64,000 nt of DNA from Kofleriaceae bacterium (GCA_965215005.1 CBDCCZ010000017.1:1-64000), one strand, 5' to 3'; positions 7,818 through 41,245 are shown, counted from the first letter of the stretch. The notes: generated by a model not told the origin, from the sequence alone. Translations and numbers: made by a program.

Positions 7818-7833
7818 GTTGTACGCGCAAGAG

Positions 7834-9375
<1,542 letters not shown>

Positions 9376-10381: not shown

Positions 10382-11716
10382 ATGACGACTCCGCCGGTCC
10401 GCAAGCGCGAAATCGCCGCCTGGTGCACGTACGACGTCGCCAGCTCCGCGTTTTCCACCGTGATGGTAGCGGTGGTGTTCAACATCTACTTTGTGGCGGT
10501 GGTCGCCGAAGGCAGAGACATTGGCGACTTTCTGTGGGGCGTTTGCACGAGCGTTTCGGCCCTGCTGGTGGCTCTGAGCTCGCCGCTTCTGGGAGCCTAC
10601 GCGGATCGCGCTGGACGCAAGAAGCGCCTGCTCCTGCTCTATACCGCCATCTACGGCCTCGGCTGCGTGCTCCTCGCCTACGCCGGGCCAGGTGATGTTC
10701 TCTTCGCGATGGTGGTCTTCATCCTCGCCAATGCCGCCTTCGAGGGCACCTACGTGTTCCTCAACGGATTTCTCCCCGAGCTCGTCGCACCGGAGAAGCT
10801 CGGCCGCATCTCTGGAATCGGCTGGGGCGTTGGCTACGTGGGTGGCCTCACCTCCATGTTCATCGCCTCGCAGATGATCCCTGCAGGCGATGCCGCGTAT
10901 CTAGCCGACTACGGTGCCGTACAAGAGGTCTTCTTGGTGGTCGCTGCGTTCGTCGGCATCGCGTCGCTGCCGACGTTCTTGCTCCTGCAGGAACGCGCCA
11001 ATGTTCGGCCTCGGCCGCCACGCGGGCATCTGCGGGCGAGCTTGCGCGAGCTCCGCCAAACCCTGCGGCACGTTCGCCGTTACCGCCAGCTCACCCGCTT
11101 CCTGCTCGCCTTCTTTTGCTACAACGACGCGGTTCAAACCACCATCCTCGTCACCGGTCTCTATGCCACGAAAACGCTGGGATTTACGGCCAGTGAGCTA
11201 GTGACTCTTTTCATGGTGTTTCAGGTGGGCGCGGCGGTGGGCGCGTTTGCCTTTGGCTTCATTCACGACAAGCTTGGCGCCAAACGGACCATTCTCGTCA
11301 CCATCAGCCTCTTCACAGTGGTCACCGCGGTGGCGATCAGCGCGCCGTCCAAGGCTACATTCTGGGTACTGGTCAACATCGCTGCCTTAGGCCTGGGCGC
11401 GATTCAAAGCTCGAGCCGCAGCGCGGTTGCATTGCTGTCGCCCAAGCACAAAAGTGGCGAGTTCTTCGGCTTCATGGCGGTCTCGGGGCGTTTCTCGACA
11501 GTGATCGGACCCGCTGCATTTGGCGTCATCTCGTGGCTCACCGGCAGTCAACAGCTGGCGCTCGTGCCTACGCTGCTACTCTTCGTAATCGGCGGTGTGC
11601 TGCTTTGGCGCGTCGATGAAGTCGACGGCAGAGCGGTTGCTCGTGCCGTCGACGCGGAGCTCGAGGCCAACCGAGCTCTCGACGAGACTCAGTCAGACGT
11701 GCCGAGCGGTTCGTAG
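10382..11716 (+). CDS. MFS transporter (UMF1/Atg22-like)
   Basis: AWCTYDVASSAF, LGAYADRAGRKK, ISGIGWGVGYVGG; about 12 TM segments. Confidence 0.88.
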   Translation: MTTPPVRKREIAAWCTYDVASSAFSTVMVAVVFNIYFVAVVAEGRDIGDFLWGVCTSVSALLVALSSPLLGAYADRAGRKKRLLLLYTAIYGLGCVLLAYAGPGDVLFAMVVFILANAAFEGTYVFLNGFLPELVAPEKLGRISGIGWGVGYVGGLTSMFIASQMIPAGDAAYLADYGAVQEVFLVVAAFVGIASLPTFLLLQERANVRPRPPRGHLRASLRELRQTLRHVRRYRQLTRFLLAFFCYNDAVQTTILVTGLYATKTLGFTASELVTLFMVFQVGAAVGAFAFGFIHDKLGAKRTILVTISLFTVVTAVAISAPSKATFWVLVNIAALGLGAIQSSSRSAVALLSPKHKSGEFFGFMAVSGRFSTVIGPAAFGVISWLTGSQQLALVPTLLLFVIGGVLLWRVDEVDGRAVARAVDAELEANRALDETQSDVPSGS

Positions 11717-12771
11717 CGGTGCGTCGTCGACCAGCGCGACCGCGGCAGCCGGTTGACGTGCGAGACGAACTTGGCGACCGCGCCGTCGATGGGCAAGAGG
11801 TTGCGAGTCTGAAAGCGAATGTTGTCGTAGACGGCGCCATCCTCATCTTTGAGCACGAAGTAGCCCCATTTCTGCGACTGCAACATGGCTTGGGCAGCGA
11901 GCAGCTTCGCGATGCCCGGCTGCTTCGGCGCGATATAGATCGGCTGCACCCGCGTCTGCCCCGGCGCCATTGGCGTGAACGCGAAGATCATTCGCAGCGG
12001 CGGCAACGGCGGCCCGCTGCCGAGAAAGCGCGTGTCCATCAGCGTCGTGAGGAGCCCAACCGTGGCGTCGACGTAGCGCATGCGATAGGCGTAGCTCGGT
12101 CCCAGGAGCCGACGTACCAGCCGCTCGCGCAGTGTCTCAGTCGACCAGCGACCGCGCATGGTGTAGTCGACGATGCGGCCGTTAGCCTCTTCGTCGACCT
12201 CGAGATTCATGTCGATCGCGAGCCCATGCACCGTGCGCAGATGCTGCGCATCAATCCCATTGATCATGCAGACGTGGTGGTGGCAAGGATGCTCGACCGG
12301 CGCCCCCGCTTGATACCAAACCTCCTGCCCCGCGAGCTCGGGATACTCCGGCACGCCCGCTGGCGCCTCGGCCTCCGGCCATACCCAGATGAAGCCGTAC
12401 TTCTCTTCGGTCGCATAGCTCTGCAAACGCGCTGCGGCCGGAGCGCGAGGCGCGCACGGCACCTCGACGCACGCCCCTTGGCCATCGAAGCGCCACTGGT
12501 GAAAGAAACAGCGCACGGTATCGCCAATGACTTTGCCGAGCGCTAAGTCGGCGCCCATGTGCGGGCAATACGCATCGAGCGCGCGAACGCGGCCGTCTTC
12601 GCCGCGGAAGATAGCCAGACGTTGGCCGCATAGCTCAACGGCCTTGACCTGGCCTCGGCGCACCTCCTCGGAGGCGCACACCAGGTACCAACCCTTGCTT
12701 ACGGCGTCCCAGTTGTTGAACATCGGCTGCGAGCGATACGGCTGCGTGCCGCAGTTTTGGTTGCGATTCAT
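11689..12771 (-). CDS. Rieske non-heme iron oxygenase (1 of 4)
   Basis: CPH...CFFH Rieske ligands; DAQHLRTVH mononuclear Fe motif; ATGA overlap with asnB. Confidence 0.9.
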   Translation of the reverse strand: MNRNQNCGTQPYRSQPMFNNWDAVSKGWYLVCASEEVRRGQVKAVELCGQRLAIFRGEDGRVRALDAYCPHMGADLALGKVIGDTVRCFFHQWRFDGQGACVEVPCAPRAPAAARLQSYATEEKYGFIWVWPEAEAPAGVPEYPELAGQEVWYQAGAPVEHPCHHHVCMINGIDAQHLRTVHGLAIDMNLEVDEEANGRIVDYTMRGRWSTETLRERLVRRLLGPSYAYRMRYVDATVGLLTTLMDTRFLGSGPPLPPLRMIFAFTPMAPGQTRVQPIYIAPKQPGIAKLLAAQAMLQSQKWGYFVLKDEDGAVYDNIRFQTRNLLPIDGAVAKFVSHVNRLPRSRWSTTHRYEPLGTSD

Positions 12772-14774
12772 CGGGCGACCTCCATAGCCTCTGCGACCGG
12801 CGGCATGCGGCGCGTCATCTCGAGGGAACGCATCGTCCAGGCGCGCCGGGCCACGAAGCGCTCGTGCAAAAGATGCGTGGTGAGCATGGCGCCCACCGCC
12901 AAATCGAGGCGCTTGGCCAGCCCCGAGCCTTCGGGAGCAAGCTGCCAAAGCCGCCGCACCAGCGCAACGAACGCTGGACGAAGAAGACCCGCACGCTTGA
13001 CCGCTGCGCTCGATAGCGTGTCGGCCACCAAGCTCTTGCCGCGCGTGGTGCGCGCAAAGCGCCGCCAGCTTGGCGACAACAGCGGGTGTTTATGGCCGCG
13101 GCGAACCAGCGGCGGCAACAGCTCGGCGAAGGCTTCGTGCAGCAAATACTTCTCGCGCAAGCGGTCGAGGTCGAGAAGGTAATCGGGCGGCAGCCTGCAT
13201 GCGAAGTCGAGCACCTCGCGATCGAGAAACGGCGTGCGGCACTCGATGGAGTTGGCCATCTCCACGCGGTCCCCCAAGCTCGGAATGATGTAGCCGGTCA
13301 ACGCGTGGAAGGCCATTGTCCGCGCCGCGTTCATCGGCTCGAGCGTGCGCAGCACCTCGGGGGCGAACGTGCGCCGCAGCATCGCCGGCGGCGCGCTTTC
13401 GGCAGTCAGCCCGAGTGCGCGCAAGTCGAACATCCAGCGCGCCATCGGCCCGAGCTCGTCTACCCGATATTGCAGGTGACTGGGATAACCATAGGGTTGC
13501 GCGGCGCGTCGCCAGCTATCACGACCGTCCCAAAGAATGCCTTCGGAGCGCGATTCCATGCGCCTAAACTGGCCAAACAGCTCCTCGCCGCGGCGCCGTT
13601 CATCCCCTTCGGTTTGCAATAAGCGCCACAGCGCCTCGAGCTTGAAGTATTGATAGCCAGCGAAGGATTCGTCGGCACCCTCACCGGTGAGACAGACCTT
13701 GGTGCCGCGACTGCGAACGTGGGCGGACAACAGCAGCTTGGCCGCGGAGTTGAGGTTGCCCACGGTTCCTTCGACGTGATCGACTGTGGTTTCCAGAGCT
13801 CCTGCCAGCCGCTCCATCGTGCAGCCGACCACGTCGAGCTCGACGTTGAAGTGTCGCGCGATTTGCGCCGCCGGGGCCGATTCGTCGAGCTCGCTGCCAG
13901 GAAACGCGATGTGATAGGCCGTCGGCCGCGCCCCCTGCTCCACCATCAGCGCCAACACCAACGTCGAGTCGACCCCGGAGCTGAGATAGACGTCGACCGG
14001 CACGTCGGCGGTGAGCCGACGCGCAACGGCTCGCCGCATGCGAACCCGCAGCTCTTGTTTGGCCTCCTCGAACGAGCGCGAGCGGTCAACGCGATCAAGC
14101 GGCGGTTGCCAATAGCGATAGGTTTGGACGGCGCCGTCATCGCCGATGATCAACGCGCTGCCGGGGGGCACCGCAGCGATTCCTTCGAAGGCGCAGGCGG
14201 TCTCGGGGCACACGCCCACGAAGGCGCCGGTCATGTACTCGGGCGAAATTCGCCGCGGCACCCGCGGCAGCGCGAGCAGCGCCTTGAGCTCGGAGCCAAA
14301 CAGAATCTCGGTATTGGTTTGGCGATAGTAGAGCGGCTTGACGCCGACCGGATCGCGCGCGGCGATGAGTCGGCGACGCCTCCCGTCCCATATGACGAAC
14401 GACATCTCGCCGTTGATTCGCTCGAGGAAGTCGAGCTCGTAGGCATTGTAAAGATGCAGCACGACCTCGGTGTCGGAGGTGGTGTAGAAGCGATGCCCAA
14501 GCGCTTCTAGCTCGGCACGCAGCGCTTGATAGTCATAGAGCTCGCCGTTGAAGACGATGGCGGTATCGCGCTCGCGATCGAAGATCGGCTGATCGCCGGT
14601 GGCCAAATCGATGATCGAGAGCCGCACGTGGGCGAGGCCGAGGGTGTTGGCGTCGAGCATCGCATAGCCGGCGTCGTCGGGACCGCGGTGGGCGATGGAG
14701 CCGAGCATGCGCGCGAGATCGGCGGGGTCGACGGGGGCACCGTCAAAGCGGCGAATGACAGCGATTCCACACAT
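12768..14774 (-). CDS. asnB: Asparagine synthase (glutamine-hydrolysing)-family amidotransferase
   Basis: MCGI Ntn N-terminus, HRGPD, RLSIID, FNGELY, LSSGVDS, TGEGADE, ECRTPFLD. Confidence 0.92.
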   Translation of the reverse strand: MCGIAVIRRFDGAPVDPADLARMLGSIAHRGPDDAGYAMLDANTLGLAHVRLSIIDLATGDQPIFDRERDTAIVFNGELYDYQALRAELEALGHRFYTTSDTEVVLHLYNAYELDFLERINGEMSFVIWDGRRRRLIAARDPVGVKPLYYRQTNTEILFGSELKALLALPRVPRRISPEYMTGAFVGVCPETACAFEGIAAVPPGSALIIGDDGAVQTYRYWQPPLDRVDRSRSFEEAKQELRVRMRRAVARRLTADVPVDVYLSSGVDSTLVLALMVEQGARPTAYHIAFPGSELDESAPAAQIARHFNVELDVVGCTMERLAGALETTVDHVEGTVGNLNSAAKLLLSAHVRSRGTKVCLTGEGADESFAGYQYFKLEALWRLLQTEGDERRRGEELFGQFRRMESRSEGILWDGRDSWRRAAQPYGYPSHLQYRVDELGPMARWMFDLRALGLTAESAPPAMLRRTFAPEVLRTLEPMNAARTMAFHALTGYIIPSLGDRVEMANSIECRTPFLDREVLDFACRLPPDYLLDLDRLREKYLLHEAFAELLPPLVRRGHKHPLLSPSWRRFARTTRGKSLVADTLSSAAVKRAGLLRPAFVALVRRLWQLAPEGSGLAKRLDLAVGAMLTTHLLHERFVARRAWTMRSLEMTRRMPPVAEAMEVAR

Positions 14775-15791
14775 TCAGCGAGCTCCTCGCGCAGCGGCTG
14801 CCGCGGGCAATAAAGCCTCCGCGCGCAGCCAATCGTGATAATCCGCCAGCGCATCGGCGAGCGCGGGCGGCTGATAACCGAGCTCACGGCGAGCGAGCTC
14901 ACTGCAAACTACATTGCGATGGATGAGGTACTCGGCGCCCTCTGGTGTCATTGCTGGCTCTCGATTCGTCACCCGCGCCGCGGCGAGCGAGGCCCATGCG
15001 TAGGCGCGGACCAACGCTTCCGGCGTGGGACGACGCGGTGCGCGGCCGCCGGTGAGCTCGGCAATGAGCTCGACCACGTGCTGAAAGCTGGCATCGGGAC
15101 CGCCGAGCAGGTATGAGCGGCTCGGACTCGGATGCGAGGCTGCAGCGACTAGCGCGTCGGCGACAGCACGCGCTCCGCAGAAGGACGTGCGCCCCGGAGC
15201 GACCCCAGGCAGCGCGTTGCGACGCACCTGGCGAAACACCGACAACCAAACCCGCGTGTCGTAGCGACCAATGATCGTCGTTGGATTGGCAATGACGGCA
15301 TCGAGCCCGCGCCGCCGGCCGCTCTCGATCTCGTCCTCCGCGAGCGCTTTGCTGCGCACGTAGCCAATTGCACTGCGATGCCCGAGTCGCGGCGAGCTTT
15401 CAGTGAGTCGCTTATTGTGCAGTCCATAGGCAGCGGCGCTCGACACGAACACCAGACGCGAGACACGTCGCGCCAGGCACGCCGCGACGACATGTCGGGT
15501 ACCAACTGTGTTCACGAGATACTGACGTTGGTGGTGTCGTGGCCAAAAGGTCATATCGGCGGCGACATGAAACACGGCGTCGCAATCTGTCGGCAGGGCG
15601 GCGACGATGCTCGCCGCATCGACGACATCTCCGGCGCGCCGCTCGACATCAAACCGGTCGAGATAGCTCCCTTGGCCGCCACCGCGCTGAAACGCGATAA
15701 CCCGCCAGCGACGAGCGAGCAGCGCTTCGACGAGATTGATGCCGACGAAGCCACTTCCGCCGATGATGAATGCAGTCCTCTTAGCCAGCAT
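14775..15791 (-). CDS. Extended SDR / NAD-dependent epimerase-dehydratase (3-beta-HSD/HpnA-like)
   Basis: GGSGFVG Rossmann motif, YVRSK (YxxxK), FHVAA. Confidence 0.88.
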   Translation of the reverse strand: MLAKRTAFIIGGSGFVGINLVEALLARRWRVIAFQRGGGQGSYLDRFDVERRAGDVVDAASIVAALPTDCDAVFHVAADMTFWPRHHQRQYLVNTVGTRHVVAACLARRVSRLVFVSSAAAYGLHNKRLTESSPRLGHRSAIGYVRSKALAEDEIESGRRRGLDAVIANPTTIIGRYDTRVWLSVFRQVRRNALPGVAPGRTSFCGARAVADALVAAASHPSPSRSYLLGGPDASFQHVVELIAELTGGRAPRRPTPEALVRAYAWASLAAARVTNREPAMTPEGAEYLIHRNVVCSELARRELGYQPPALADALADYHDWLRAEALLPAAAAARGAR

Positions 15792-15813
15792 GAGGTTCCC
15801 CGACTGCACCCGC

Positions 15814-15829
15814 AGCAAGTAGCGCGCCA
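15814..15829 (-). promoter_or_regulatory. Sigma-54 promoter of the SDR-asnB-Rieske arm
   Basis: Minus strand TGGCGCG-CTAC-TTGCT, close to consensus TGGCACG-N4-TTGCW, 23 nt upstream of the ATG. Confidence 0.65.
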
Positions 15830-15951
15830 TGCATTTCGATGCAACGACTGTCATGGAGCCCACACGGCTTACTTGTAGCCAGCAGCGCAAGCGGCCGCTT
15901 AGTCTGATCACCGCGATGCGGGGGGTGACATCGCTCCAGCCAGGACCATCG

Positions 15952-16482
15952 ATGACCGACTTCTCTATCGTGCACGAGTTCGATACCGATGCCGAAACCT
16001 TCTGGCGCGTGTTCTTCGACGAGCATCACGCAGCCGCCTTCTATGGATCCATCGGCGTCGTTCGCACCGAGCTACGCCGAGACGAAGACGATGACAGCTT
16101 GGTCGTCATCGCGCGCTATAGCAGCGAGCGGCAGCTTCCTGGCTTCGTGCGCAAGATTCTCGGCAATCGCGAGCTTGGCTACGTCGAGACGCTCACCTAT
16201 CGCAAGCGCGAGGGCTACGCCGCGCAGCACGTAGAACCGAGCATTGCTGCCGAGCGGACTCGCTTCAGCGGCCGCATTGCGGTCGAGCCGGTGGCGGCGG
16301 GCCGCATTCGCCGCCGCTACGACGGCCGCTTGTCGATTGCCATCCCCCTGGTCGGCGGCCGCATCGAACGCGCCACCATCGACGACATGACTCGCGCCCA
16401 TCAGCGCGCTGCTGAGGTCACCCGCGCCTGGCTGGCGGACGCGGGGCCGGGGTCTCGAGAACCGGCAACGTCGGTTTCCTGA
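15952..16482 (+). CDS. DUF2505/SRPBCC (START-like) ligand-binding protein
   Basis: Size and pattern FSIVHEF...FW..FFD, LPGFVRK, IAIPLVGGRIE. Confidence 0.7.
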   Translation: MTDFSIVHEFDTDAETFWRVFFDEHHAAAFYGSIGVVRTELRRDEDDDSLVVIARYSSERQLPGFVRKILGNRELGYVETLTYRKREGYAAQHVEPSIAAERTRFSGRIAVEPVAAGRIRRRYDGRLSIAIPLVGGRIERATIDDMTRAHQRAAEVTRAWLADAGPGSREPATSVS

Positions 16483-16538
16483 CGGCCCGACGAGCCTCTG
16501 CAGAGGAAGCCAAGTGGCCAGAATTGTGGCCTCGGGCC

Positions 16539-16554
16539 TGGCATATCAATCGCA
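16539..16554 (+). promoter_or_regulatory. Sigma-54 promoter of the large right-hand operon
   Basis: TGGCATA-TCAA-TCGCA (GG-N10-GC) about 40 nt before the GTG at 16596. Confidence 0.5.
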
Positions 16555-16595
16555 AGTGGTCAGAGCGTCTCGCAACGAGATGAAAGGGGTCGACG

Positions 16596-17639
16596 GTGAG
16601 CAGCGTCCGACACACAGCAATCTTCAACAACAGCGACTGTTTCGTGGAGGGGTGGTACTGGGCGCTGTCCTCTGATGAGCTCGGGCTCGAGGAGGTCAAG
16701 GCGGTCAAGCTGCTCGGTCGTGAGTTGGTGGTGTACCGCGGCGCCGATGGCCAGGTAGTCGCCATGGATGCCTACTGCCCGCACATGGGCGCTCATCTCG
16801 CAGAAGGCCGGGTAGATGGCAACGCGTTGCAATGCTTCTTCCACGGCTGGAAGTTCGACGGCAGCGGCAGCTGTGTCGAGGTTCCGCGCCTGGACAAGCC
16901 GCCGCGCGCTTCGGTGCAGACGTGGCCGGCCCGCGAGCACTACGGGATGATATGGATTTGGACGGGTGCCGACGTCAAGCGCGAGCTGCCGTACGTGCCC
17001 GAGCTTCGCGATGACGAGACCGACGTTCTCCTCGGCAACCGCTTCATCAAGAACTGCCATCCCAACGTCGTGCTCATCAACGCCATCGATGAAAATCACT
17101 TCAACACGGTCCACAACCTGCCGGTGGACCTCCACATGCAAACCGACGTCGTGAACGAGAACGTGGTGACGTTCTCCAACACCACCTCGGTTCCCGATAG
17201 CAACGCGTTCACCCGCGCCATCAGCCATCTCTACGCGGGGCCGCTGACCTACAGCATGTGCTACCACTTCGCCAGCACCGGCACCGTCACTGTCGGTCCC
17301 GACCGAATGCACTTCCACATCATGTTCGCGCTGCGCATGCTCGAAGGCGGCATCGCAGAAGGACAGACGATACTCATTACCAAACGACGCGCCGGCGTCG
17401 GCGGGTATGCGTTCAATCGCGCCGCCTTGGCCGCGACCAAAGTCGTGGGCGACTACTTTGCCAAAGGCGATACGCAGGTCTTTCAGACCATGAAGTTCGA
17501 CTTTGCGACGCCCACCAAAGCCGACCACGCGATCATCGACTTCGTTCAGCATACCGAGCAGCAACACGCCTTGACGTGGGGCCGTTGGGAGCCGGTAGAG
17601 AGCGCCAAGAAGCACCTGGAGGTGGTCGGTGGGCACTAA
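16596..17639 (+). CDS. Rieske non-heme iron oxygenase (2 of 4)
   Basis: CPH...CFFH; DENHFNTVH. Confidence 0.9.
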   Translation: MSSVRHTAIFNNSDCFVEGWYWALSSDELGLEEVKAVKLLGRELVVYRGADGQVVAMDAYCPHMGAHLAEGRVDGNALQCFFHGWKFDGSGSCVEVPRLDKPPRASVQTWPAREHYGMIWIWTGADVKRELPYVPELRDDETDVLLGNRFIKNCHPNVVLINAIDENHFNTVHNLPVDLHMQTDVVNENVVTFSNTTSVPDSNAFTRAISHLYAGPLTYSMCYHFASTGTVTVGPDRMHFHIMFALRMLEGGIAEGQTILITKRRAGVGGYAFNRAALAATKVVGDYFAKGDTQVFQTMKFDFATPTKADHAIIDFVQHTEQQHALTWGRWEPVESAKKHLEVVGGH

Positions 17640-17640
17640 G

Positions 17641-18396
17641 ATGACAGGGCGGGTGGTGCCGATTGCACGCGTGAGCGAGACGCAACGCCGGCAGATGTAC
17701 GCGGTGTTCGAGCGCTACTACGAAGCGGTCGACTTCGAGACCTTTGAGAGGGATTTAGCCAGCAAAGACTACGTCATCCTGCTGTTCGATGGCGGCGGCA
17801 CCATTGGCGGCTTCTCCACCATGAAGCACCTCGAGCTGCACCGCGATGGCAAGCTTCATCGCGGCTTGTTCTCCGGTGACACGGTCGTCGCGGAAGAGTT
17901 TTGGGGCCAGCGAGTTCTCGGCCGGCTGTTCTTGCGCCATCTGTTGCTACAGAAGCTCAAGCGGCCGCTGGAGCCTTATTGGTGGTTCTTGATCTCCAAG
18001 GGCTACAAGACCTATCTCCTCATGGCGAACAACTTCGCTGAGCACTATCCGCGCTTCGAAGGGCAGACCTCGGCCGAGGCCCAGGCGCTGCTCGACGGCT
18101 TTGCCGCGACGCTCTATCCCAATGACTATCGCCGCGAGCGCGGCACCATCGAGTTCGATCAGTCGCATGGACAGCTCAAGCGCGGCATTGCCGGCATCAC
18201 CAGCGAAATGCTCGGAAATCCGCGCATCCAATTCTTTCAGGAGCGCAATCCCGGCTGGAGCCAGGGACATGAGCTGGCGTGCATCGCTCGCATGACGTTA
18301 GCCATGCCCGCCTATTACGCTGCCAAGGCAGTGATCAAAAAGTGGGGACGTCTCGGGCATCGGTTGGCGCCGCTACCGCCGGTGGCGCGTGATTGA
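17641..18396 (+). CDS. GNAT-like hypothetical protein of the type found beside GH3 genes
   Basis: FERDLASKD, FSGDTVVAEEFWG, FLISKGYKTY; fold call is inference. Confidence 0.6.
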   Translation: MTGRVVPIARVSETQRRQMYAVFERYYEAVDFETFERDLASKDYVILLFDGGGTIGGFSTMKHLELHRDGKLHRGLFSGDTVVAEEFWGQRVLGRLFLRHLLLQKLKRPLEPYWWFLISKGYKTYLLMANNFAEHYPRFEGQTSAEAQALLDGFAATLYPNDYRRERGTIEFDQSHGQLKRGIAGITSEMLGNPRIQFFQERNPGWSQGHELACIARMTLAMPAYYAAKAVIKKWGRLGHRLAPLPPVARD

Positions 18397-19334
18397 AGCG
18401 GACGTGCAAGACGTGAGCTCCGCAATCGCGATCCGCGCCGGCATGACCATGGAAGCGGTGGATGCCGAGGATCCTCTAGCCAAACTGGTCGGCGCGATCA
18501 TCCGCAAACGGCGCGGTCAGCCGCAAGCCAGCACCCGCGGCGGCCACGGTCATTGGACCGCGGACTTCTTTGGGCTGCAGCGGGTGAGCGGCTTCATGGA
18601 AAGCACCGAAGCCGTGCAGGCGGCGGTGCTCGAGCGCTGCGGTCGCGGCCTTCTCGAAGAAGCGTTGTTCATCGAGAAATCGGGCGTGGCGTTCGCCGCG
18701 AAGATGATCCTCTTGGCGCAAAGCACCGACGAGCGCAAGCTCTACGCGATGTTTGCTGCCGACGAGGCCGCCCACCTAGACGGCATCAGTCGCTTCTGCA
18801 CGGCTGACGCCAGCGCTGCTAGCGATAATCCGTTCTTGGTGCTTTTGTCCGAGCTCATCGAAGGAGCCGACCGCTCGACGCTGCAGCTGATCGTTCAGGT
18901 CGTGCTCGAGGGTTGGGGGCTCAGCCATTATCGCGCCCTGCGTGATGGCTGCACCCATGCGCCGCTGCGCGAGGTATTGGCGAGCATCCTCGCCGACGAA
19001 GCCGCGCATCACGCCAGCGGCGTCATCCTCCTCGACGGGCGGGCGCTCGAGGGCGATGCCGAGGCGCAGATCTACGCGGCCATGGCGCGCTTTCCTGTCG
19101 CTGGTCCAGTGCGGTCCCCAGGGCGTGCTCGGCGCGCTCGAGGCCGAGCTCGGTCCGCAGAGCAAGGATTCCCGAGCGCGCATTCTCGAAGAGCTCGACG
19201 CGCAAGCGCACAGCGCTGCGCGCTTAGGGCATTTGCGAGGCCTTCTCCACAAAACCGCCGGCGCTCAACACATCACCGAGCGACTCGAAGCCAGCGGTTA
19301 CTTCCGTCCCCATGCAACATCGGAGCTGGTATGA
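18389..19334 (+). CDS. Ferritin-like diiron-carboxylate protein (frameshift at 19091-19093)
   Basis: FIEKSG, DEAAHL, VVLEGWG, DEAAHH; removing one T from TTT joins the C-terminus ending in an ATGA overlap with the next gene. Confidence 0.8.
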
Positions 19335-20510
19335 CGTCGCCATTCTCGTGCGCGCCGACCATCGTCGACGACAAGAAGACCTACGCGCGCCTACAGATCA
19401 ACCACAAGCGCAACAAGCAACAAGATCACACTGCACTGCTAGACGAAGCCGCGGCAGCGTTCAATTACCAGCAGTGCAAAGACGAGTTCTGGAATCCCGA
19501 GTCTCACTCACTGTGCCATGGCACGCCCATCTGGGAGCAAGCGAGCGCGACGCAGCGCGTGCTCCTCAATCAGCTCTACTGGGTGGCTTACTACTCGCAG
19601 ATCATCTCTGCCGAAATCGCGACGATCTTCTTCAATCAGACGAGCGCCGCGGGCCTCTACGCTCTGGAGGACTTTCGGCTGATCTGCGACACGCTGGATC
19701 TCGAATCGGCGCAAGAGCGAGCCCATATCGCCGCATTCAAGAAGATCTCCGACGCAGTCGAGCACGCACTCTTTGGCGAGCGGGTGTTTTCGTGGTCCAT
19801 GCGAGGCCCCTACGAGGAGACCATGGTGCACTCCGACGCGGGGCCATTTCGCCGGCGCTGGAAGCAGCTCCAGCTGCGCACCTACGGGATGCTGTCGTCC
19901 GGCAATGCCTTCATCGCGTGCCAGTACTTCACGATTCGCGCCCTGCGAACGCTCAATGGCAAGATCGTTCAGCATCAGCTAGCGCAGTACTACGCCAATC
20001 ATGCGGATCAGGCCAACGCGCCCGTTCCTTCCGCTATTAGTCATTATCATTTCCAGGACGAGTCGTATCACTTCAACAGCTCGATGCTGATAGCCCAAGA
20101 CGTGCTTCGTTCACTCGCGCCCGCCGACCCAGTTCGAGCGTCTCGTGGCGAATCTGGCGCTACGCGGCTGCCAACGCGATCATTCCCACTTCAGTGTCGC
20201 GATCAATGGCATCTTCTGGTTCGATCCGTCGCTGTTTCAATCCGTGTATCGGGTGCTTCGCTCGCACCACTTCGGGCTTGATCATCGCGGTGCGCTGGCG
20301 CTGATGGAACAGTCGTTTTGTCGCGAAACCGACGGGATGCACGCGAGCTATCGCACCCAGCAAACTGCCTGCGAGTCGTACAAGAAGTTTCTCACCGGCA
20401 TGGAGTACGTCTCCGCAGACAACCTCGAGATGTCGCTCATGTCGCAGAGCTCTGTCGCCACGCATCTGGCCACCAACCGTGCCGCCATGAAGCGGTTCGC
20501 GGAGGCTTAA
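19331..20510 (+). CDS. CylC/AurF-like dimetal-carboxylate enzyme, putative halogenase or oxygenase (frameshift at 20120-20122)
   Basis: GTPIWEQASATQRVLLNQLYW, SAEIAT, LDLESAQERAH, HFQDESYH; removing one C restores ...PPTQFERLVANLALRGCQRDH... through to the stop at 20510. Confidence 0.75.
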
Positions 20511-20512
20511 TC

Positions 20513-20803
20513 ATGGCGGTCACGGTCAGCTTTTTCGCGAGCGAGTATCCCGCCGTCGAGCTCGACCACGGCGACAACCTCGCCGAGCACCTCGACGTGG
20601 GCAACTCGCCGCTGCTATTTGGCTGCCGCACCGGCATCTGCGGCACCTGTCTGGTGCGCGTCGAAGGAACGCTGCCGCCGCCGAGCGATGACGAGCGCGA
20701 GCTCCTCGAGGTGCTGGCGCCCGAGGATCCGCAGGCGCGTCTGGCTTGCCAGATCGAGCTCGTCGGCGATATTCGGGTGGGACCTCACCCAGAGGGAGGG
20801 TGA
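20513..20803 (+). CDS. 2Fe-2S ferredoxin
   Basis: FGCRTGICGTC...RLACQ. Confidence 0.92.
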   Translation: MAVTVSFFASEYPAVELDHGDNLAEHLDVGNSPLLFGCRTGICGTCLVRVEGTLPPPSDDERELLEVLAPEDPQARLACQIELVGDIRVGPHPEGG

Positions 20804-21847
20804 GCTTGCTCAGCTACCGATCGTTTTGGTACGTGGTTGCGCAGAGCGCTGAGCTCGGGCCGAAAACCGTTTTGCGCCGCAAAGTGCTCGGCGAATGGAT
20901 GGCGGTGTTTCGCGGCGACGGAGGTCATCCTGCCGCGCTGCGCGACCGCTGCATGCACCGCAACGCACCGCTATCGAAGGGCATGGTCAACGATGGATTG
21001 CTGCAGTGCCCCTACCACGGTTGGGTTTATGACGGCGCCGGCACGGTGGTGGCGGTTCCAGCAGAGGGTGAGAAGTTCAAAGCCAGCAAGCGTCGCTGCG
21101 CGGTGAGCTATCCGGTGATCGAGCGCGATGGCTTCGTCTACGCGCGACTCGACAAGGATGCTCCAGAGGACATCCAGCCGTACTCGATGCCGCATTGGGG
21201 CGAGCGCGGCTGGAAGCACGTCCGCCTCGTCAACCGCTTCCGTAACAACGTCACCAACTGCGCCGAGAACTTCATCGACGTTCCCCACACCGTCTACGTG
21301 CACGATAAGATTTTTCGCGTGCAGCGCTCGCAAAAGGTCGACGCCACGATTCGCCGCACCAATGGCTCCGTGCAGGTCGAGTATCACGGCGAAACCTCCA
21401 ACCTCGGGTGGTTCTCGTGGTTCCTCAACCCAAAGGGCAGCCCCATCGAGCATCGCGACAACTTCTACATGCCCAACGTGACCGAGGTTGAATACACGTT
21501 CTCGGAGAACCGTCGCCTGTACATCATCTCGCAAACGGTGCCCGAGGAAGATCACGAGTGCGTGGTCTACACCAGCCTCACCTATGACTTTGGGCCATTC
21601 TCGCAGTGGCCGCTCAGCGAGATCGCAGGCCGCATTCTTGGCTGGCAAGGACAGAAGGTCATCGATCAAGACATCGACGCGCTCCACGATCAAATGGACG
21701 TCATCGGCAAGTACGGCGAAGCGTTCAACAACACCGCCGCCGATGCGATTCACGTGCTCGTCGAGTCGATTCGCGACGAGCTACTCGCTGGCCGCGATCC
21801 GCGGGCTCTGCCGGAGAAATCCCGCCAACATCAGTTTCTGGGTGTAA
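20800..21847 (+). CDS. Rieske non-heme iron oxygenase (3 of 4; frameshift at 21821-21823)
   Basis: CMH...CPYH; ENFIDVPHTVYVH; removing one C gives the C-terminus KSANISFWV* with a TAATG overlap. Confidence 0.85.
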
Positions 21848-22584
21848 TGCTCGAGCTCGGCGCATTCTGGCTGCTCGTCGTGATCGGCGCGCGACGTAGC
21901 GATGGGCTACGAGCTTACAAGAACAAGCCGCTCGCGGACTGGATGCTCGACGGCATCGGCTTGGCCGTACAAGGCGCGCTGATTCCGTTTCTGCAGATAG
22001 CGTTCGTCGTAGCAGGACTGCAGCTCGTGGCGCCGGCGCTCGCGGGCAGCGTTCATTTGCCTGGCGATGACCTCATCGTGGGATTTCTGCTCAACGTGAT
22101 CGCCATCGACTACTTGTACTATTGGAACCATCGGCTCCTGCACAGCCGCCGACTCTGGCCGGTGCATCTAGTCCATCACACCCTCACCGAGATGGACGTG
22201 GTGGGAACCTCCCGCAACACCGTCTGGACCAGCTTCTTCATCCTGTATCTATGGGTGAACGGCGTGATCATCTTCTTGTTGGCTGAGCCCGCGGGCTTCA
22301 TCGCTGGCGCTGCGGTGACCGCTGCTCTCGATCTCTGGCGCCATTCGTCGGTCGAGCCGCGGCGCGGGGGTCGGCTCGAGCGCGTGCTCGGCACGGTGTT
22401 GGTCTTGCCGCGCGACCACGCCTGGCACCACGCCGACTCCGATGAACACGGAAACTTCGGCGCCAACTTCCGGCTCTGGGATCTATTGCATGGAACCTAT
22501 CTCGGCCGTCGACCACCGCCCCCGCGCCTGGGCTGCCAATCTTCGCTGTCGTTGCCACAAAAGCTGCTCTGGCCCCTCTCATGA
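21847..22584 (+). CDS. Sterol desaturase / fatty acid hydroxylase family membrane diiron enzyme
   Basis: His boxes HRLLH, HLVHH, HAWHH; NFGANFRLWD; TM segments. Confidence 0.9.
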   Translation: MLELGAFWLLVVIGARRSDGLRAYKNKPLADWMLDGIGLAVQGALIPFLQIAFVVAGLQLVAPALAGSVHLPGDDLIVGFLLNVIAIDYLYYWNHRLLHSRRLWPVHLVHHTLTEMDVVGTSRNTVWTSFFILYLWVNGVIIFLLAEPAGFIAGAAVTAALDLWRHSSVEPRRGGRLERVLGTVLVLPRDHAWHHADSDEHGNFGANFRLWDLLHGTYLGRRPPPPRLGCQSSLSLPQKLLWPLS

Positions 22585-23189
22585 CGCTCGCCGCTCGCCT
22601 CATCGCGCTGTTTCCCGCCGCCTTGCTGACCGCGTCGCTGGGCTGCCTGGTGTGGCTCATCGCCCGGCCAGGAATCTGGCCTCTCATCGCGTTGGCCGGT
22701 CTCCTCTACCTCGTGCCGCTGCTCGCATTTCGCCTGCACCAGCGGCTCTGGCCGATGAAACTCGGGGCCAGTTATCTGGCTAGCCCCAGCTACAACCCGT
22801 GGTGGGGCACGCACCAGCTGCAAGCTATCTATCTCGGCTTCCCCGCTCTCGAAGCGGCGCTGCGGCTCGTCCCCGGCCTCTACAGCGCCTGGCTGCGCCT
22901 TTGGGGCGCCCGCATCGGCCGGCGCGTGCACTGGACACCGCTCCTAGAGCTCACTGATCGCAGTCTGCTCGACATTGGCGATGACGTCATCATCGGCCAT
23001 CGCTGCGGCTTCTATGGGCACATCATCAAGCCCACCAAGAACAACTTGCTCCTCTACTGCAAGCCCATCACGATCGGCAGCGGTGCCTTCATCGGCGCCG
23101 GTTCGTCGATCGCGCCCGGGGTCAAGATCGCGGCCGGAGTAATGATCGAGCTGCGCACGGAGCTGTACCCCAACAAGGAAGTGCCGTGA
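22581..23189 (+). CDS. Membrane-anchored hexapeptide-repeat (LbH) acyltransferase-like protein
   Basis: Two N-terminal TM helices; WGARIG, IGDDVIIG, IGSGAFIG repeats. Confidence 0.8.
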   Translation: MTLAARLIALFPAALLTASLGCLVWLIARPGIWPLIALAGLLYLVPLLAFRLHQRLWPMKLGASYLASPSYNPWWGTHQLQAIYLGFPALEAALRLVPGLYSAWLRLWGARIGRRVHWTPLLELTDRSLLDIGDDVIIGHRCGFYGHIIKPTKNNLLLYCKPITIGSGAFIGAGSSIAPGVKIAAGVMIELRTELYPNKEVP

Positions 23190-24754
23190 CCGCTCGCGGG
23201 CTGCTGCTGCGCGGAGTGGGAGCGGCACTCACGCCAAGCCTCTGGCGCTTGCGCCGCGCTCTCGCCAATCCCGCTGCCGCTCGAGCGCGGCTGATGCATC
23301 AGCTCGGCGAGCGCCTCGTCGCCAGTCGCTATGGGCAAGACCTCGGTCTCACCCACCCGAGCCAGTTTTCGAGCCGCGTGCCGGTGGTCGACTACGACTC
23401 CTTGGAGCCGTGGCTCGAGCGTCAACGACTGCAGGAGACTGCAGAGCTCACGCCCGAGCGGGTGCTGTTTTACGAGAAGACCAGTGGCTCGAGCGGAGCT
23501 GCCAAATACATCCCGTACACCGCTTCGCTGCGGCGTTCGTTCTCGCGAATGTTTGCGGCTTGGGCCGCTGATCTACTCACGAGCGGCCCCAGGCTCGCCA
23601 CCGGCAAGCTGTACATGAGCGTGTCGCCGAGCTTTGCGCAAGACGAGTCAACTCCTCAGGGCAGGGCCGTCGGCATGACCGACGACCGCGACTATCTCGA
23701 TTCCTGGCTGCGCCCCGTGGTCGCGCCATTCCTCATCGGCCATGGCTTAGCCGCCACCGACGCGCGTTCCTTCAAGCGCGCGGTGCTCGAGCTACTCGTC
23801 GCCGAGGCCGAGCTCGAGGTCATCTCGATCTGGAACCCTTCGTTTCTCCTCGTGCTCCTCGATGAGCTCGCCGCCGATCCGCGCGCCATCGCCACGGCCC
23901 TCGGCAGCCGGCTGTCGCCGAGCCGCCGCGATGCGCTGCTCGCCGGCCCTATCGACTGGCCGCGACTGTGGCCCCAGCTCAAGCTGATCTCGTGCTGGGC
24001 GGCGGCCGCCGCGGCACCACTTGCCGCGCGCGTGGCGCGACTGCTTCCGCACGCGATGGTGCAAGGCAAAGGGCTTCTTGCCACCGAGGCGCCGATCACC
24101 GTGCCGCTCATCGGCGCCCCCGGCCCCGCGCCCATGATCAGCGACATTTTGATCGAGCTCGAAGACGATGGTGGCCGTCTCCACGCGCTGCACCACGCGC
24201 AGCAAGGCGCCGAGTACGGCGTGGTTATCTCGCAAAGCGCCGGCTTGTATCGCTACCGCATGGGCGACCGCGTCGTCGTCGGCCCGCGCATCGCAAATAC
24301 TCCGACACTTACCTTCGTCGGCCGCGCCGGCGGCGTGAGCGACTTGGTCGGCGAGAAGCTCTCCGAGCGCTTCGTTGGCGACACGCTCGCGCGTGTGCAT
24401 CCAGCCGCTGGCTTCCAAACACTGGTGCCAATGCGCATTCCGCGCGATCACTACATCTTGCTCGTCGACCACGCGCCGCAGGGTGATCACGACCAGCTCG
24501 CTCGAGCCGTCGACGAAGCGCTGTCGGCCGCGCATCATTATCGGCACGCCCGCGCGCTCGACCAACTCGGCCCGGTTCGCGTTTGCATCGCCAAAGACGC
24601 CGCTAGCTTGGCGACCTTCGACTATGCAGCGTCCGGCCTCAAGCTCGGTGATATCAAACCCCGAGCGCTGCACGGCGGCCCGGTGGCGCCTGCTTTGGCC
24701 TGCCGCCTCGCGCGCGGCGATCGCCCCGAGTCCGCTCACGAGGAGTCTCCATGA
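23186..24754 (+). CDS. GH3-family acyl-adenylate amido synthetase
   Basis: TSGSSGAAKYIPYT, LLATEA, GLYRYRMGD, DLVGEKL. Confidence 0.9.
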   Translation: MTARGLLLRGVGAALTPSLWRLRRALANPAAARARLMHQLGERLVASRYGQDLGLTHPSQFSSRVPVVDYDSLEPWLERQRLQETAELTPERVLFYEKTSGSSGAAKYIPYTASLRRSFSRMFAAWAADLLTSGPRLATGKLYMSVSPSFAQDESTPQGRAVGMTDDRDYLDSWLRPVVAPFLIGHGLAATDARSFKRAVLELLVAEAELEVISIWNPSFLLVLLDELAADPRAIATALGSRLSPSRRDALLAGPIDWPRLWPQLKLISCWAAAAAAPLAARVARLLPHAMVQGKGLLATEAPITVPLIGAPGPAPMISDILIELEDDGGRLHALHHAQQGAEYGVVISQSAGLYRYRMGDRVVVGPRIANTPTLTFVGRAGGVSDLVGEKLSERFVGDTLARVHPAAGFQTLVPMRIPRDHYILLVDHAPQGDHDQLARAVDEALSAAHHYRHARALDQLGPVRVCIAKDAASLATFDYAASGLKLGDIKPRALHGGPVAPALACRLARGDRPESAHEESP

Positions 24755-25656
24755 ACGATGCATCCCGCTGGCGCAGCTCGCGAACCGGCGCCGTCACCCG
24801 CGTCAAAGAAGCGCTGGGAATGGCGCGATTGTTACTCTCGCCTGGCGCGAGTCGAACGACGGCCATCTACGACATTCTATCGGCGCACAACAATCTCGGC
24901 GACAACACGCTGTATCTCAACATGGGCTATTGGCGCGATGCGCGCAGCTACGATGAGGCGTGCGAAGCACTAGCGGTGCTACTCGCCGAACGCGCTCAGC
25001 TGGCCGCTGGCCAGTGCATCGTCGATGCCGGCTTCGGGTTCGCCGATCAAGACATTCTGTGGGCGCAGCGCTATGGCGTCGATATCGTCGGCTTCAACAT
25101 CACCGCTCGGCAAGTCGATATTGCTCGCGAGCGCGTCGCGAACGCGGGGCTCGCCGCGCGGGTCGATTTGCGCTGCGCTTCCGCCCTCGAGACCGATCTT
25201 GCCGCCGCTAGCGTTGACCGGGTGCTGGCGCTGGAGTCGGCGTTTCACTTCCCGTCACGCGAGGCGTTCTTTGCCGAAGCGCGCCGCGTGCTGGTTCCTG
25301 GCGGCATTCTTGCCATTGCCGATATCTGCGCCGCCAAGCAGCGCTCGAGCCGATGGATCGACCGCTTGAACACCTACGTAGCGCGGCAAAGCTGGCAGAT
25401 TCCCCGCGGCAACGACTACGATGCGCACGCGTACGCCGAGCGTCTGACCGCCGCTGGCTTCATCGATGTCTCGATTGAGTCCATTACAGATGAGGTATTT
25501 CTGCCGTTTGGCGCCTACGCTCGCATGCGCCAAGCCGACCCTGACATCGTCGCGCGCGCCAACCCGCTGATGCGCGCGGTCTGGCGCTCGCCCGCGACCG
25601 ACCGAGTGTTCGATTACGTCGTCATCACCGCGCGCAAGCCGGAGGCGCAAGCGTGA
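24751..25656 (+). CDS. Class I SAM-dependent methyltransferase
   Basis: YLNMGYW, VDAGFGFA, LESAFHF, RVLVPGG. Confidence 0.9.
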   Translation: MNDASRWRSSRTGAVTRVKEALGMARLLLSPGASRTTAIYDILSAHNNLGDNTLYLNMGYWRDARSYDEACEALAVLLAERAQLAAGQCIVDAGFGFADQDILWAQRYGVDIVGFNITARQVDIARERVANAGLAARVDLRCASALETDLAAASVDRVLALESAFHFPSREAFFAEARRVLVPGGILAIADICAAKQRSSRWIDRLNTYVARQSWQIPRGNDYDAHAYAERLTAAGFIDVSIESITDEVFLPFGAYARMRQADPDIVARANPLMRAVWRSPATDRVFDYVVITARKPEAQA

Positions 25657-26774
25657 AACGCCCCGCCAAAGATGGTCACACGTTAGGCGAGAACCAGCTC
25701 ACCCAGCCGCGGACGATCCATCGCGCCTTCAACAACCACGAAGTCATCACCGAAGGATGGTACCCAGCGTTGCCGAGCAAGGCGCTCGGTGCACGGAAAA
25801 CCCATTCGGTCAGGATCGGCTATCAACGGCTGGTGGTGTATCGCGGCGAAGATGGCCGTGCCCGCGCGCTCGATGCCTTCTGTCCGCACATGGGCGCCGA
25901 CCTTGCCAATGGCAGTGTCGTTGGCGATCAAATCCAGTGCTACTTTCATCAGTGGCGATTCGATGAGCACGGCATCTGCGTCGCAACCCGCTGCGGCGAG
26001 CCAGCGCCCAAAGGCGCGCGCTTGCAGGCATATCCCACCGAAGAGCGCTACGGGTTCATTTGGGTGTACTCGGCGCCCATTGCAGCGCATCCGCTACCGG
26101 TCTGTCCCGGCCTCGAAGGCAAGGCAGTTGCAGCGCTGCACCTTGGCCGGGTAACTCTCTACGCGCACCACCACGCCATGATGGCCGGCGGCATCGACCT
26201 GCAGCACTTCGGCAGTGTCCATGAGCTCGATGTCGACTTCGAGCTCGACATCAGCGAACGCGGCGCAGGCGTTGCCGACTGGAACCTCTCCGGCACCTTG
26301 CCGCACGGAGGGAGCTGGCGACAACGGCTCGGGCGCGCGTTGGTGGGCGCCACCATCGGCTATTCACTGCGGGTCGCCGGCGGCAGCATCGCCGCGATCA
26401 CCTACGGCCGCGGCCAACGGCTCGGCGGGCGCGGACCGCGGTTGCCGTCGCTGCACATCCTCTGGGGATGCTTGCCGAGCGAGAGTGGCGTGAGTGAGGT
26501 GGATATCTTCGTGCTGGTCGAGGACCGCAAAGGCGTGGCTGGAAAACTGGCTTCGCGCGCGCTGATGGGCCTTACCATCGCGCTGCTCACGCTGCTCAAA
26601 GACGACGACGTCAAAGCGTTTCCCAACATGCGCTTCAATCCCAAGAACCTGATCGGCGCCGACCGCTCGGTTGCGCGCTTCATTCAGTACGCCAACGGGC
26701 TTGGCATCTCGCAGTGGTCGAAACCCTCACCTGAGCTCGTCCAAGTGGGACGCGCCTCTCGCGCCCCCCGATGA
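25653..26774 (+). CDS. Rieske non-heme iron oxygenase (4 of 4)
   Basis: CPH...CYFH; DLQHFGSVH. Confidence 0.9.
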   Translation: MKRPAKDGHTLGENQLTQPRTIHRAFNNHEVITEGWYPALPSKALGARKTHSVRIGYQRLVVYRGEDGRARALDAFCPHMGADLANGSVVGDQIQCYFHQWRFDEHGICVATRCGEPAPKGARLQAYPTEERYGFIWVYSAPIAAHPLPVCPGLEGKAVAALHLGRVTLYAHHHAMMAGGIDLQHFGSVHELDVDFELDISERGAGVADWNLSGTLPHGGSWRQRLGRALVGATIGYSLRVAGGSIAAITYGRGQRLGGRGPRLPSLHILWGCLPSESGVSEVDIFVLVEDRKGVAGKLASRALMGLTIALLTLLKDDDVKAFPNMRFNPKNLIGADRSVARFIQYANGLGISQWSKPSPELVQVGRASRAPR

Positions 26775-27541
26775 GCCTGCGCAAGCCGACCCTCGATGAG
26801 TGGTTCAGCGCCTATCAGCTCGCCAGCCTAGGGCGAGACTCCTTCCATAATCCGGGCCACCTCGAGGTCGACATCACGGCGCTCGTGCGTCGCTATCAAG
26901 ACGCGGGGCAGCGGCTGTCGTATCCGGCGTTGGTGATGAAAGCCTACGCGCTCACGGCTCGGCAGGTGCCCGCGATCAACCGCGCGTATCTGCGAACCCC
27001 GCTCGGCGATCGCATCGTCGAGTTCGATCACATATCAGTCAACATGCCGGTGGCCCTTTACGATGACGGCGCGCCGTACCTCTCGGCTTTGGTGGTCAAG
27101 CACGCCGATCGCATCAGCGTGAACCAGATCGCCGGGCAGATTCGCGCTGCGCAACAGCGTCCCATCGAAACCACCAAGCTCACGCGACTCGTGGCGCGCA
27201 AGCCGAACACGCTGCTTTGGCGCTCGGTGCTGCGCAGCGCGCATTTTGCTGCCTATCGTTGGCCCGCGCTCATGGCCAAAGCGGGCGGCGGCTTGTCGTT
27301 GAGCTCGCTGCTCGAGCATCGGCCCGCCCCGCCGCACTTCCATGCTGCCTCGTTTGGTCCCACCGCCACCACTCTGCTGCTCACCGGCGTGCGCCAAACC
27401 GACTCTGGCCGCTATCGCCTCGAGCTCGGCGTCAGCATCAATCACACCGCAGCCACGGGCCTCACCTGGCGGCGGATGGTCACCACCCTGAGCGACCTCC
27501 TCGAAAGTGAGTCGAGCGACGTCCTGGCGCAGCTCGACTAA
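26771..27541 (+). CDS. Stand-alone 2-oxo-acid dehydrogenase E2/CAT-like acyltransferase domain
   Basis: EVDIT, VMKAYAL...PAIN, VVKHAD..SV.QI, SLSSL, INHTAATG at the HxxxDG position. Confidence 0.6.
   Translation: MSLRKPTLDEWFSAYQLASLGRDSFHNPGHLEVDITALVRRYQDAGQRLSYPALVMKAYALTARQVPAINRAYLRTPLGDRIVEFDHISVNMPVALYDDGAPYLSALVVKHADRISVNQIAGQIRAAQQRPIETTKLTRLVARKPNTLLWRSVLRSAHFAAYRWPALMAKAGGGLSLSSLLEHRPAPPHFHAASFGPTATTLLLTGVRQTDSGRYRLELGVSINHTAATGLTWRRMVTTLSDLLESESSDVLAQLD

Positions 27542-41170: not shown

Positions 41171-41245
<75 letters not shown>

Follow-up and report, generated by a model that had tools for sequence, protein, structure and literature searches.

A CylC-like diiron enzyme gene with a helix-3 glutamine in a carrier-less, Rieske oxygenase-rich gene cluster of a Kofleriaceae bacterium

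Described relatives of the gene studied here include the halogenases CylC, NocO, BrtJ and ColD, for which a 3-His/3-Glu diiron site has been predicted with a helix-3 glutamate pushed out of the first coordination sphere (PMC12101540). In the available parts of that paper this glutamate (CylC E283) is equated with AurF E196 and is kept in all four enzymes. Its replacement in NocO (E252A) left iron bound but abolished chlorination; alanine was the only replacement tested, not glutamine. The same source proposes as halogenase-specific the 3-His/3-Glu site with its open position and the Gln of a QExxH motif, mentions 'a small subset' of 242 homologues with Gln at the helix-3 position, and uses ferredoxin in the NocO assay. 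The word 'Rieske' has 0 occurrences in the accessible text and supplement text of PMC12101540. One homologue of the Rieske-associated type treated below, sll0266, is listed in its Table S3 among 12 that were expression-screened and was not taken further; it is down-regulated on iron removal (PMC3516471).

The genomic contexts of CylC homologues were catalogued by Eusebio et al. (2021; PMC8406957). The commonest of them, termed 'Rieske-containing', accounted for 36 of 95 CylC clusters and has, besides its single CylC homologue, two to four Rieske genes and a sterol desaturase but no carrier, with deltaproteobacterial members included. According to the available portions of that paper no product was known by 2021 for any of these 36 clusters, untethered fatty-acid intermediates were proposed as substrates, and non-halogenating oxidations were allowed for some members. 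In the literature searched on CylC halogenases, sll0266 and Rieske-linked homologues no function was reported for this branch, and the accessible parts of PMC13548996 and of a bioRxiv preprint (10.64898/2026.09.06.749771) held nothing further on it. The first annotation of this DNA had suggested a halogenase or a new oxidase acting without an ACP. The carrier-less branch, the idea of an untethered substrate and the idea of another oxidation were already present in PMC8406957.

The window, meaning the whole stretch of 64,000 nucleotides that was analysed, contains a gene cluster at 11689–27541 with a CylC-like gene at its centre (Table 1). The first-pass annotation had placed this gene inside a mis-fused ORF and had named ATG 19331 as its true start. 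Both points hold. The ATG has a GGAG upstream at 5-nt spacing, it overlaps the TGA (19332–19334) of the upstream gene, and close intact homologues begin with the same residues; the mis-fused ORF (18389..20281, 630 aa) is in the ORF list and is made up of the N-terminal part of the ferritin-like protein, an off-frame stretch and aa 1–263 of the CylC-like gene. A single fused 630-aa protein was rejected, since both GC3 and an alignment with the intact Myxococcales MAG locus L001 show its middle and tail to be out of frame. The extent given for the gene was right as to its end, but not as to a single open frame: reading from 19331 meets a stop at 20281, before 20510, and a +1 slip at ~20122 had gone unmentioned. 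With the slip read as X, the translation comes to 392 aa, aligns end to end with intact homologues up to the stop TAA (20508–20510) and shares 73% identity with the intact homologue P0003 along its length. By profile search the gene is single copy in the genome and is recovered as two pieces (model positions 3–266 and 264–392). The motifs listed earlier were all seen in the translation, namely GTPIWEQASATQRVLLNQLYW at aa 64–84, EIATIFFNQ at aa 95–103, LDLESAQERAH at aa 122–132 and HFQDESYH at aa 240–247, as was a middle helix without Glu (aa 199–214, YFTIRALRTLNGKIVQ).

Table 1. Genes of the cluster and sites within the CylC-like gene (window coordinates).
Feature	Coordinates	Strand	Remarks
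Rieske oxygenase A	11689..12777	-	in 59/84 loci
AsnB-like glutamine amidotransferase	12768..14774	-	domain match
NAD-dependent epimerase/dehydratase (extended SDR)	14775..15911	-	same place in intact L001 cluster
DUF2505 protein	15829..16482	+	domain match
Rieske oxygenase B	16596..17639	+	in 72/84 loci
Conserved hypothetical protein, 255 aa	17629..18396	+	in 59/84 loci
Ferritin-like diiron protein, likely start ATG 18443	18389..19334	+	Ferritin_2; slip at ~19093 makes fused ORF
CylC-like (PF28091) diiron enzyme gene	19331..20510	+	392 codons with one +1 frameshift bridged
Glu95, predicted iron ligand (CylC E103, NocO E94, BrtJ E102)	19613..19615	+	alignment
QExxH: Gln128 second sphere; Glu129, His132 predicted ligands	19712..19726	+	
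Helix-3 face R203, T207, G210, K211, Q214	19937..19972	+	
HxxDExxH: His240, Asp243, Glu244, His247	20048..20071	+	
+1 frameshift, extra base in C run, inside CylC-like gene	20118..20126	+	blastn places slip at 20122
[2Fe-2S] ferredoxin, likely electron donor	20513..20803	+	Fer2 1e-9; in 72/84 branch loci
Rieske oxygenase C	20800..21847	+	+1 slip ~21813-21826 fuses ORF to next gene
Fatty-acid hydroxylase / sterol desaturase family protein	21847..22584	+	PF04116 1.5e-23
Hexapeptide-repeat acyltransferase-like protein	22581..23189	+	
GH3-family acyl-adenylate / amide synthetase	23186..24754	+	OlsH model 44.5 bits vs cut-off 620
SAM methyltransferase	24751..25656	+	
Rieske oxygenase D	25653..26774	+	
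Stand-alone 2-oxoacid-dehydrogenase-type acyltransferase catalytic domain	26771..27541	+	PF00198 7.5e-7

The GC content of the cluster (61–66%) shows no anomaly against that of the window (61–68%), in which the only Rfam match was a tRNA gene at 41171–41242 (RF00005, 67.7 bits). The 255-aa conserved protein gave no Pfam or NCBIfam match; its nearest named cluster in the Atlas is GNAT at 0.90, with the family on 20% of members, which offers a weak lead towards a GNAT. Even L112, L113 and L123, which have a reduced cassette of four genes, retain this protein. The ornithine-lipid enzymes OlsH and OlsE are no more than distant relatives of the GH3 protein and the hydroxylase. A bacterial GH3 protein is described as making N-acyl ornithine (PMC12493201).

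Compared with L001, in which the whole cluster is intact, three +1 slips were found within 2.8 kb, at ~19093 in the ferritin-like gene, at 20122 in the CylC-like gene and at 21813–21826 at the end of the gene for Rieske oxygenase C, all of them in or beside C runs. A 612-aa fusion of Rieske oxygenase and fatty-acid hydroxylase (20746–22584) is an artefact of the third slip, the two being separate genes in L001. In the CylC-like gene GC3 is 0.77 before the break; beyond it, the original frame falls to 0.40 and the shifted frame stays at 0.77. Residues invariant in the branch are retained at 100 of 103 positions before the break and at 26 of 26 after it, and in-frame nonsense codons are absent. 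A programmed frameshift is not supported, the gene being intact and in a single frame in 84/84 branch loci. For the background rate of such slips, 175 sense-like ORFs from 400 kb of two genomes of the same family yielded 84 orthologues (33,348 aa). Shifts were present in three of these; one appears to lie on the query side, and the other two genes, with three events in ~100 kb of coding DNA, belong to the window's genome, where one of the shifts is again an extra C. Four of the 84 had a stop within the aligned stretch. Outside the cluster, frameshifts in genes that are intact in relatives were seen in the window's own genome in C12 at ~143869 and in C49 at ~241700 and 242040.

The assembly therefore does carry indels of this kind, and the frameshift in the CylC-like gene is most probably an assembly error. 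The alternative is that the window copy, whatever the function of the family, is a gene that was broken recently, within a cluster that is decaying. Decay would account for the presence of frameshifts in three core genes so close together, and for three slips in ~16 kb of cluster where an estimate from the background predicts ~0.5, but it fits poorly with slips that are all +1 at C runs and so resemble a background case, with the lack of in-frame nonsense and the retained invariant residues, and with the remaining 12 genes of the cluster being unbroken. It is considered improbable.

A search with aa 1–263 returned 1150 relatives at E<=0.001 out of 1438 candidates. Among the matches listed (120 of 1150), identity was 64–78% and 120/120 carried PF28091, which the Atlas names CylC-like, although among the named matches listed the NCBI/UniRef name is 'P-aminobenzoate N-oxygenase AurF'. 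The Pfam AurF model (PF11583) scored 15.6 bits against a gathering cut-off of 29.6, and NCBIfam had no model for the protein. Sequences from the halogenase side were obtained by searching 251 genomes of one cyanobacterial order, of which 63 matched and 40 regions were fetched. One of these loci, L110, we take to be a brt-like context, with a DarB-like neighbour in support. The L110 protein carries E102, Q135, E219 and H246, which are the BrtJ numbers in the accessible supplement of PMC12101540; CylC, NocO and ColD lay outside the sequence set and are represented by the residue numbering of the same paper. The window protein (P0001) is 30.6% identical to the L110 protein over 389 aa (E 2e-58). 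With this whole-protein homology to a BrtJ-numbered protein, and PF28091 in the listed homologues, the gene product belongs to the PF28091 CylC-like family and not to AurF/CmlI, in agreement with the first annotation, which had matched its motifs to CylC/BrtJ halogenases, enzymes that chlorinate ACP-bound acyl chains.

The fold is nevertheless shared with AurF and CmlI. A search of the PDB with the single CylC-like protein gave nothing useful, while with a profile CmlI was the sole match. A model of P0003 (pLDDT 95.3) is a ferritin-like bundle whose best fold matches were CmlI (Z 17.3, rmsd 4.1, 278 aligned, 12% identity) and AurF (Z 16.7, rmsd 4.5, 300 aligned, 11% identity); Foldseek with the same model found nothing at E<=0.001, with CmlI best at 0.014. 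Besides the fold, AurF and CmlI (PDB 2jcd, 5hyh) share with the window protein three His ligands and HxxxExxH spacing, and the window locus too is without a known dedicated ACP neighbour.

The six predicted ligands (E95, E129, H132, H240, E244 and H247), placed by alignment, are intact, and the second-sphere Q128 of QExxH and D243 of HxxDExxH are both present. The window protein has eight of the nine active-site residues of CylC, NocO, BrtJ and ColD, and it shares with them these two motifs, R203 and K211, the predicted ferritin-like fold and a ferredoxin-type electron supply. The ninth residue is different. An alignment anchored on R203 and K211 places Q214 at CylC E283, NocO E252 and BrtJ E219, and at the helix-3 Glu of CmlI, the last by a weak local alignment (whole-sequence E 7e-4). 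For NocO the equivalence is aided by a primer in PMC12101540 that translates to ANLLLKNH directly ahead of E252. Q216 was rejected as the equivalent of E283, as the anchors put the Glu at 214 and position 216 varies. The Glu on which NocO chlorination depends, and with it the full 3-His/4-carboxylate set of AurF and CmlI (helix-3 Glu, AurF E196), is thus absent, with Gln214 in its place. Further differences from the characterised enzymes are Thr for Asn seven residues before Gln214, Gly210 for a mostly aliphatic residue, an identity of only 27–31% and the lack of the insertion of the 450–490-aa forms. The absence of a Glu where a fourth carboxylate ligand would be expected, noted in the first annotation, is confirmed, but it does not mark CylC halogenases: CylC, BrtJ, ColD and NocO keep the residue.

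Residues were compared over 264 aligned sequences of at least 330 aa, with three distant proteins left out. Identity to the window protein shows a gap between 0.33 and 0.48. Above it Gln214 and Thr207 occur in 204/204 sequences and below it Glu and Asn in 57/57. The rows are redundant, and part of the selection (120 of 1150 proteins, 80 of 385 genome matches) favoured sequences resembling the query; as they also form one clade, the Gln/Thr swap counts as one evolutionary event and not 204. Conserved in both groups are 38 positions, among them the six ligands, Q128, D243, R203 and K211. On these alignments Gln214 separates the branch of the window protein from the established halogenases.

In quick IQ-TREE runs (82 rows, and 32 rows without distant outgroups; AurF and CmlI outside both trees) the Gln proteins formed a clade of their own, apart from the PKS/DarAB-associated homologues, with SH-aLRT 100 in both and a stem of 1.4–1.6 changes per site. 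The window protein was placed in a non-cyanobacterial subgroup beside sequences of Myxococcales and Polyangiales MAGs. Of 301 genomes from the host's class 2 matched, and of 401 from its phylum 14, among them 8 others with strong full-length matches; this patchiness suggests lateral spread. The gene tree supports a myxobacterial host, short of proof. The earlier suggestion of a probable myxobacterium is therefore borne out in so far as the nearest named relatives are Myxococcota MAGs, while a patchy cluster does not fix the taxon.

The neighbourhood was surveyed in 84 loci of the Gln type with flanks up to 10 kb, 57 of them with at least 4 kb on each side. Any Rieske gene was present in 81, a ferritin-like gene in 77, the ferredoxin in 72, the conserved 255-aa protein in 59, the hydroxylase in 58, the hexapeptide protein in 54 and GH3 in 45. 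Searches by blastp with three ACPs, one FAAL, one KS and one DarB as queries found ACP, FAAL, PKS or DarB in 0/84 of these loci, and no ACP, FAAL or PKS was found among the 21 window proteins scanned. The first annotation's suggestion of an enzyme acting without an ACP is supported in so far as no ACP or FAAL adjoins the gene in the window or in the 84 branch loci. All 36 Glu-type loci were without Rieske genes and 33 had carrier or assembly genes; in lacking ACP, FAAL, PKS and DarB neighbours the window gene differs from CylC, NocO, BrtJ and ColD. The core recurs in eight further loci of the host's phylum, and several of these also have Rieske D and the PF00198 acyltransferase. Several window genes are rare in the cyanobacterial loci: AsnB and the SDR occur in 1 each of the 84, the methyltransferase in 2, and Rieske D, the PF00198 acyltransferase and DUF2505 in 3 each.

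With one CylC homologue in the genome, four Rieske genes, a PF04116 gene and no carrier, the window protein is a member of the 'Rieske-containing cluster' branch of PMC8406957. In common with the 'Rieske-containing' and 'PriA-containing' clusters of that catalogue are the single CylC homologue, two to four Rieske genes, a gene of the sterol desaturase family, a ferritin-like gene and acyltransferases, the lack of both a carrier and an activating enzyme, a well-supported separate clade and deltaproteobacterial members; the window copy differs in its three frameshifts and in the rare genes just named. What the comparison of aligned residues adds to PMC8406957 and PMC12101540, as far as their accessible parts go, is that the Gln/Thr pair and the carrier-less Rieske branch coincide exactly.

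Directly upstream of the CylC-like gene lies the ferritin-like gene in 62 of the 77 loci that have both. In 49 sequences the partner has an invariant set of four carboxylates and two His (E, ExxH, E, ExxH; in L001 numbering E84, E114, H117, E162, E192 and H195, and also E79). It is apparently a second diiron enzyme, predicted from these residues to be active. Its model (pLDDT 90.6) matched MMO hydroxylase (Z 16.1), an aldehyde-deformylating oxygenase-like fold (15.9), R2 (15.4) and CmlI (15.1), and as many diiron folds match about equally it was given no function. A short-chain dehydrogenase was seen near the ferritin-like gene in L001 (8242–9096), L023, L036, L069, L078, L149 and L150; the window cluster is without it at that place.

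Some homologues lie outside these two main types. Short (408–423 aa) Glu-type proteins were seen in L104, L105 and L107 (~7200–8900) and in L106 and L108; in one group a ferredoxin gene follows in place of an ACP, and another has Arg at 206 like the Gln branch and stands among non-Rieske genes. These may be intermediates between the branches. More distant relatives of 337–405 aa (P0227, P0240, P0249 and P0265; 18–21% identity) fall between CylC-like and AurF-like proteins and have EExxH for QExxH in the three that were read, with an acidic helix-3 residue where aligned.

It is proposed, in a judgement that is about evenly poised, that the CylC-family protein of the Rieske branch chlorinates an unactivated fatty-acyl C–H without a dedicated carrier. 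The predicted 3-His/3-Glu diiron site would have one open position; by analogy with CylC and NocO chemistry it would be reduced by the adjacent ferredoxin and would activate O2, upon which a high-valent iron-oxo species would abstract an acyl hydrogen and iron-bound chloride would be transferred. Gln214 may still form the hydrogen bonds of the Glu while contributing no carboxylate, and Arg203 and Lys211, which both branches share, could stabilise the anion. Judging from the neighbouring genes, the substrate could be an acyl chain that is free or is bound to CoA, to the housekeeping ACP or to a lipid, and the four Rieske oxygenases, the second diiron enzyme, the hydroxylase, the GH3 protein and the acyltransferases point to an oxidised acyl-amide lipid as the possible product of the pathway. 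The balance tips towards chlorination in that the protein retains the proposed halogenase-specific features, that the residue which differs does not bind the iron and that Gln cannot supply the open site with a carboxylate. Against it stand the inactivity of NocO E252A (PMC12101540), the full divide between Gln and Glu with its coupled change from Asn to Thr207, the long stem and wholly different gene partners.

These same points lend weight to another reading, in which the diiron/O2 chemistry is unchanged but ends in hydroxylation or desaturation, the changes from Glu to Gln and from Asn to Thr marking a shift away from chlorination. Both fully differential residues lie on the same side of helix 3, and NocO does not chlorinate without one of them; the context is rich in oxygenases and carrier-less, and in the accessible text of PMC8406957 no product is tied to the 36 clusters and other oxidations are allowed. 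On the other hand, most diiron hydroxylases are 2-His/4-carboxylate enzymes (PMC12101540), a set that the upstream ferritin-like protein has and the CylC-like protein has not; the NocO result concerns Ala and not Gln, and the QExxH Gln, R203 and K211 are common to the halogenases. As NocO needs this Glu, as its loss on a long stem is paired with a change at the neighbouring helical position, and as no product is linked to the branch, such an oxidation is a close second and a real possibility, with chlorination narrowly ahead. An N-oxygenase of the AurF/CmlI kind, acting on an amine from the AsnB or GH3 enzymes, would suit the database names, the top fold matches and the three His, but is very unlikely given that Gln takes the place of the fourth carboxylate (the helix-3 Glu of CmlI in the alignment) and Gln128 that of the second-sphere AurF Asp135, that the Pfam AurF score is below the cut-off, that identity is 11–12% to CmlI and AurF against ~30% to BrtJ-type proteins, and that AsnB was found within the fetched flanks of only one of the 84 loci.

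As the window copy is frameshifted, it adds little by itself, and intact orthologues such as that of L001 (10001–11185) are better suited to testing. The T207/Q214 pair offers two cheap reciprocal mutants with which to probe what divides the branches. PMC8406957, in the text available, counts the carrier requirement and the prediction of activity from sequence among the questions still to be answered for these enzymes, and remarks that a CylC-like enzyme without need of a tethered substrate would make a useful biocatalyst. In its widest form our reading is tentative, and we think it rather doubtful that all of it will hold: the Gln/Thr branch would consist of diiron halogenases that act independently of a carrier, or of diiron enzymes with another chemistry, T207/Q214 being the switch, and may be teamed with the upstream diiron enzyme in a widespread pathway to a chlorinated or highly oxidised amide lipid in cyanobacteria, myxobacteria and other phyla.
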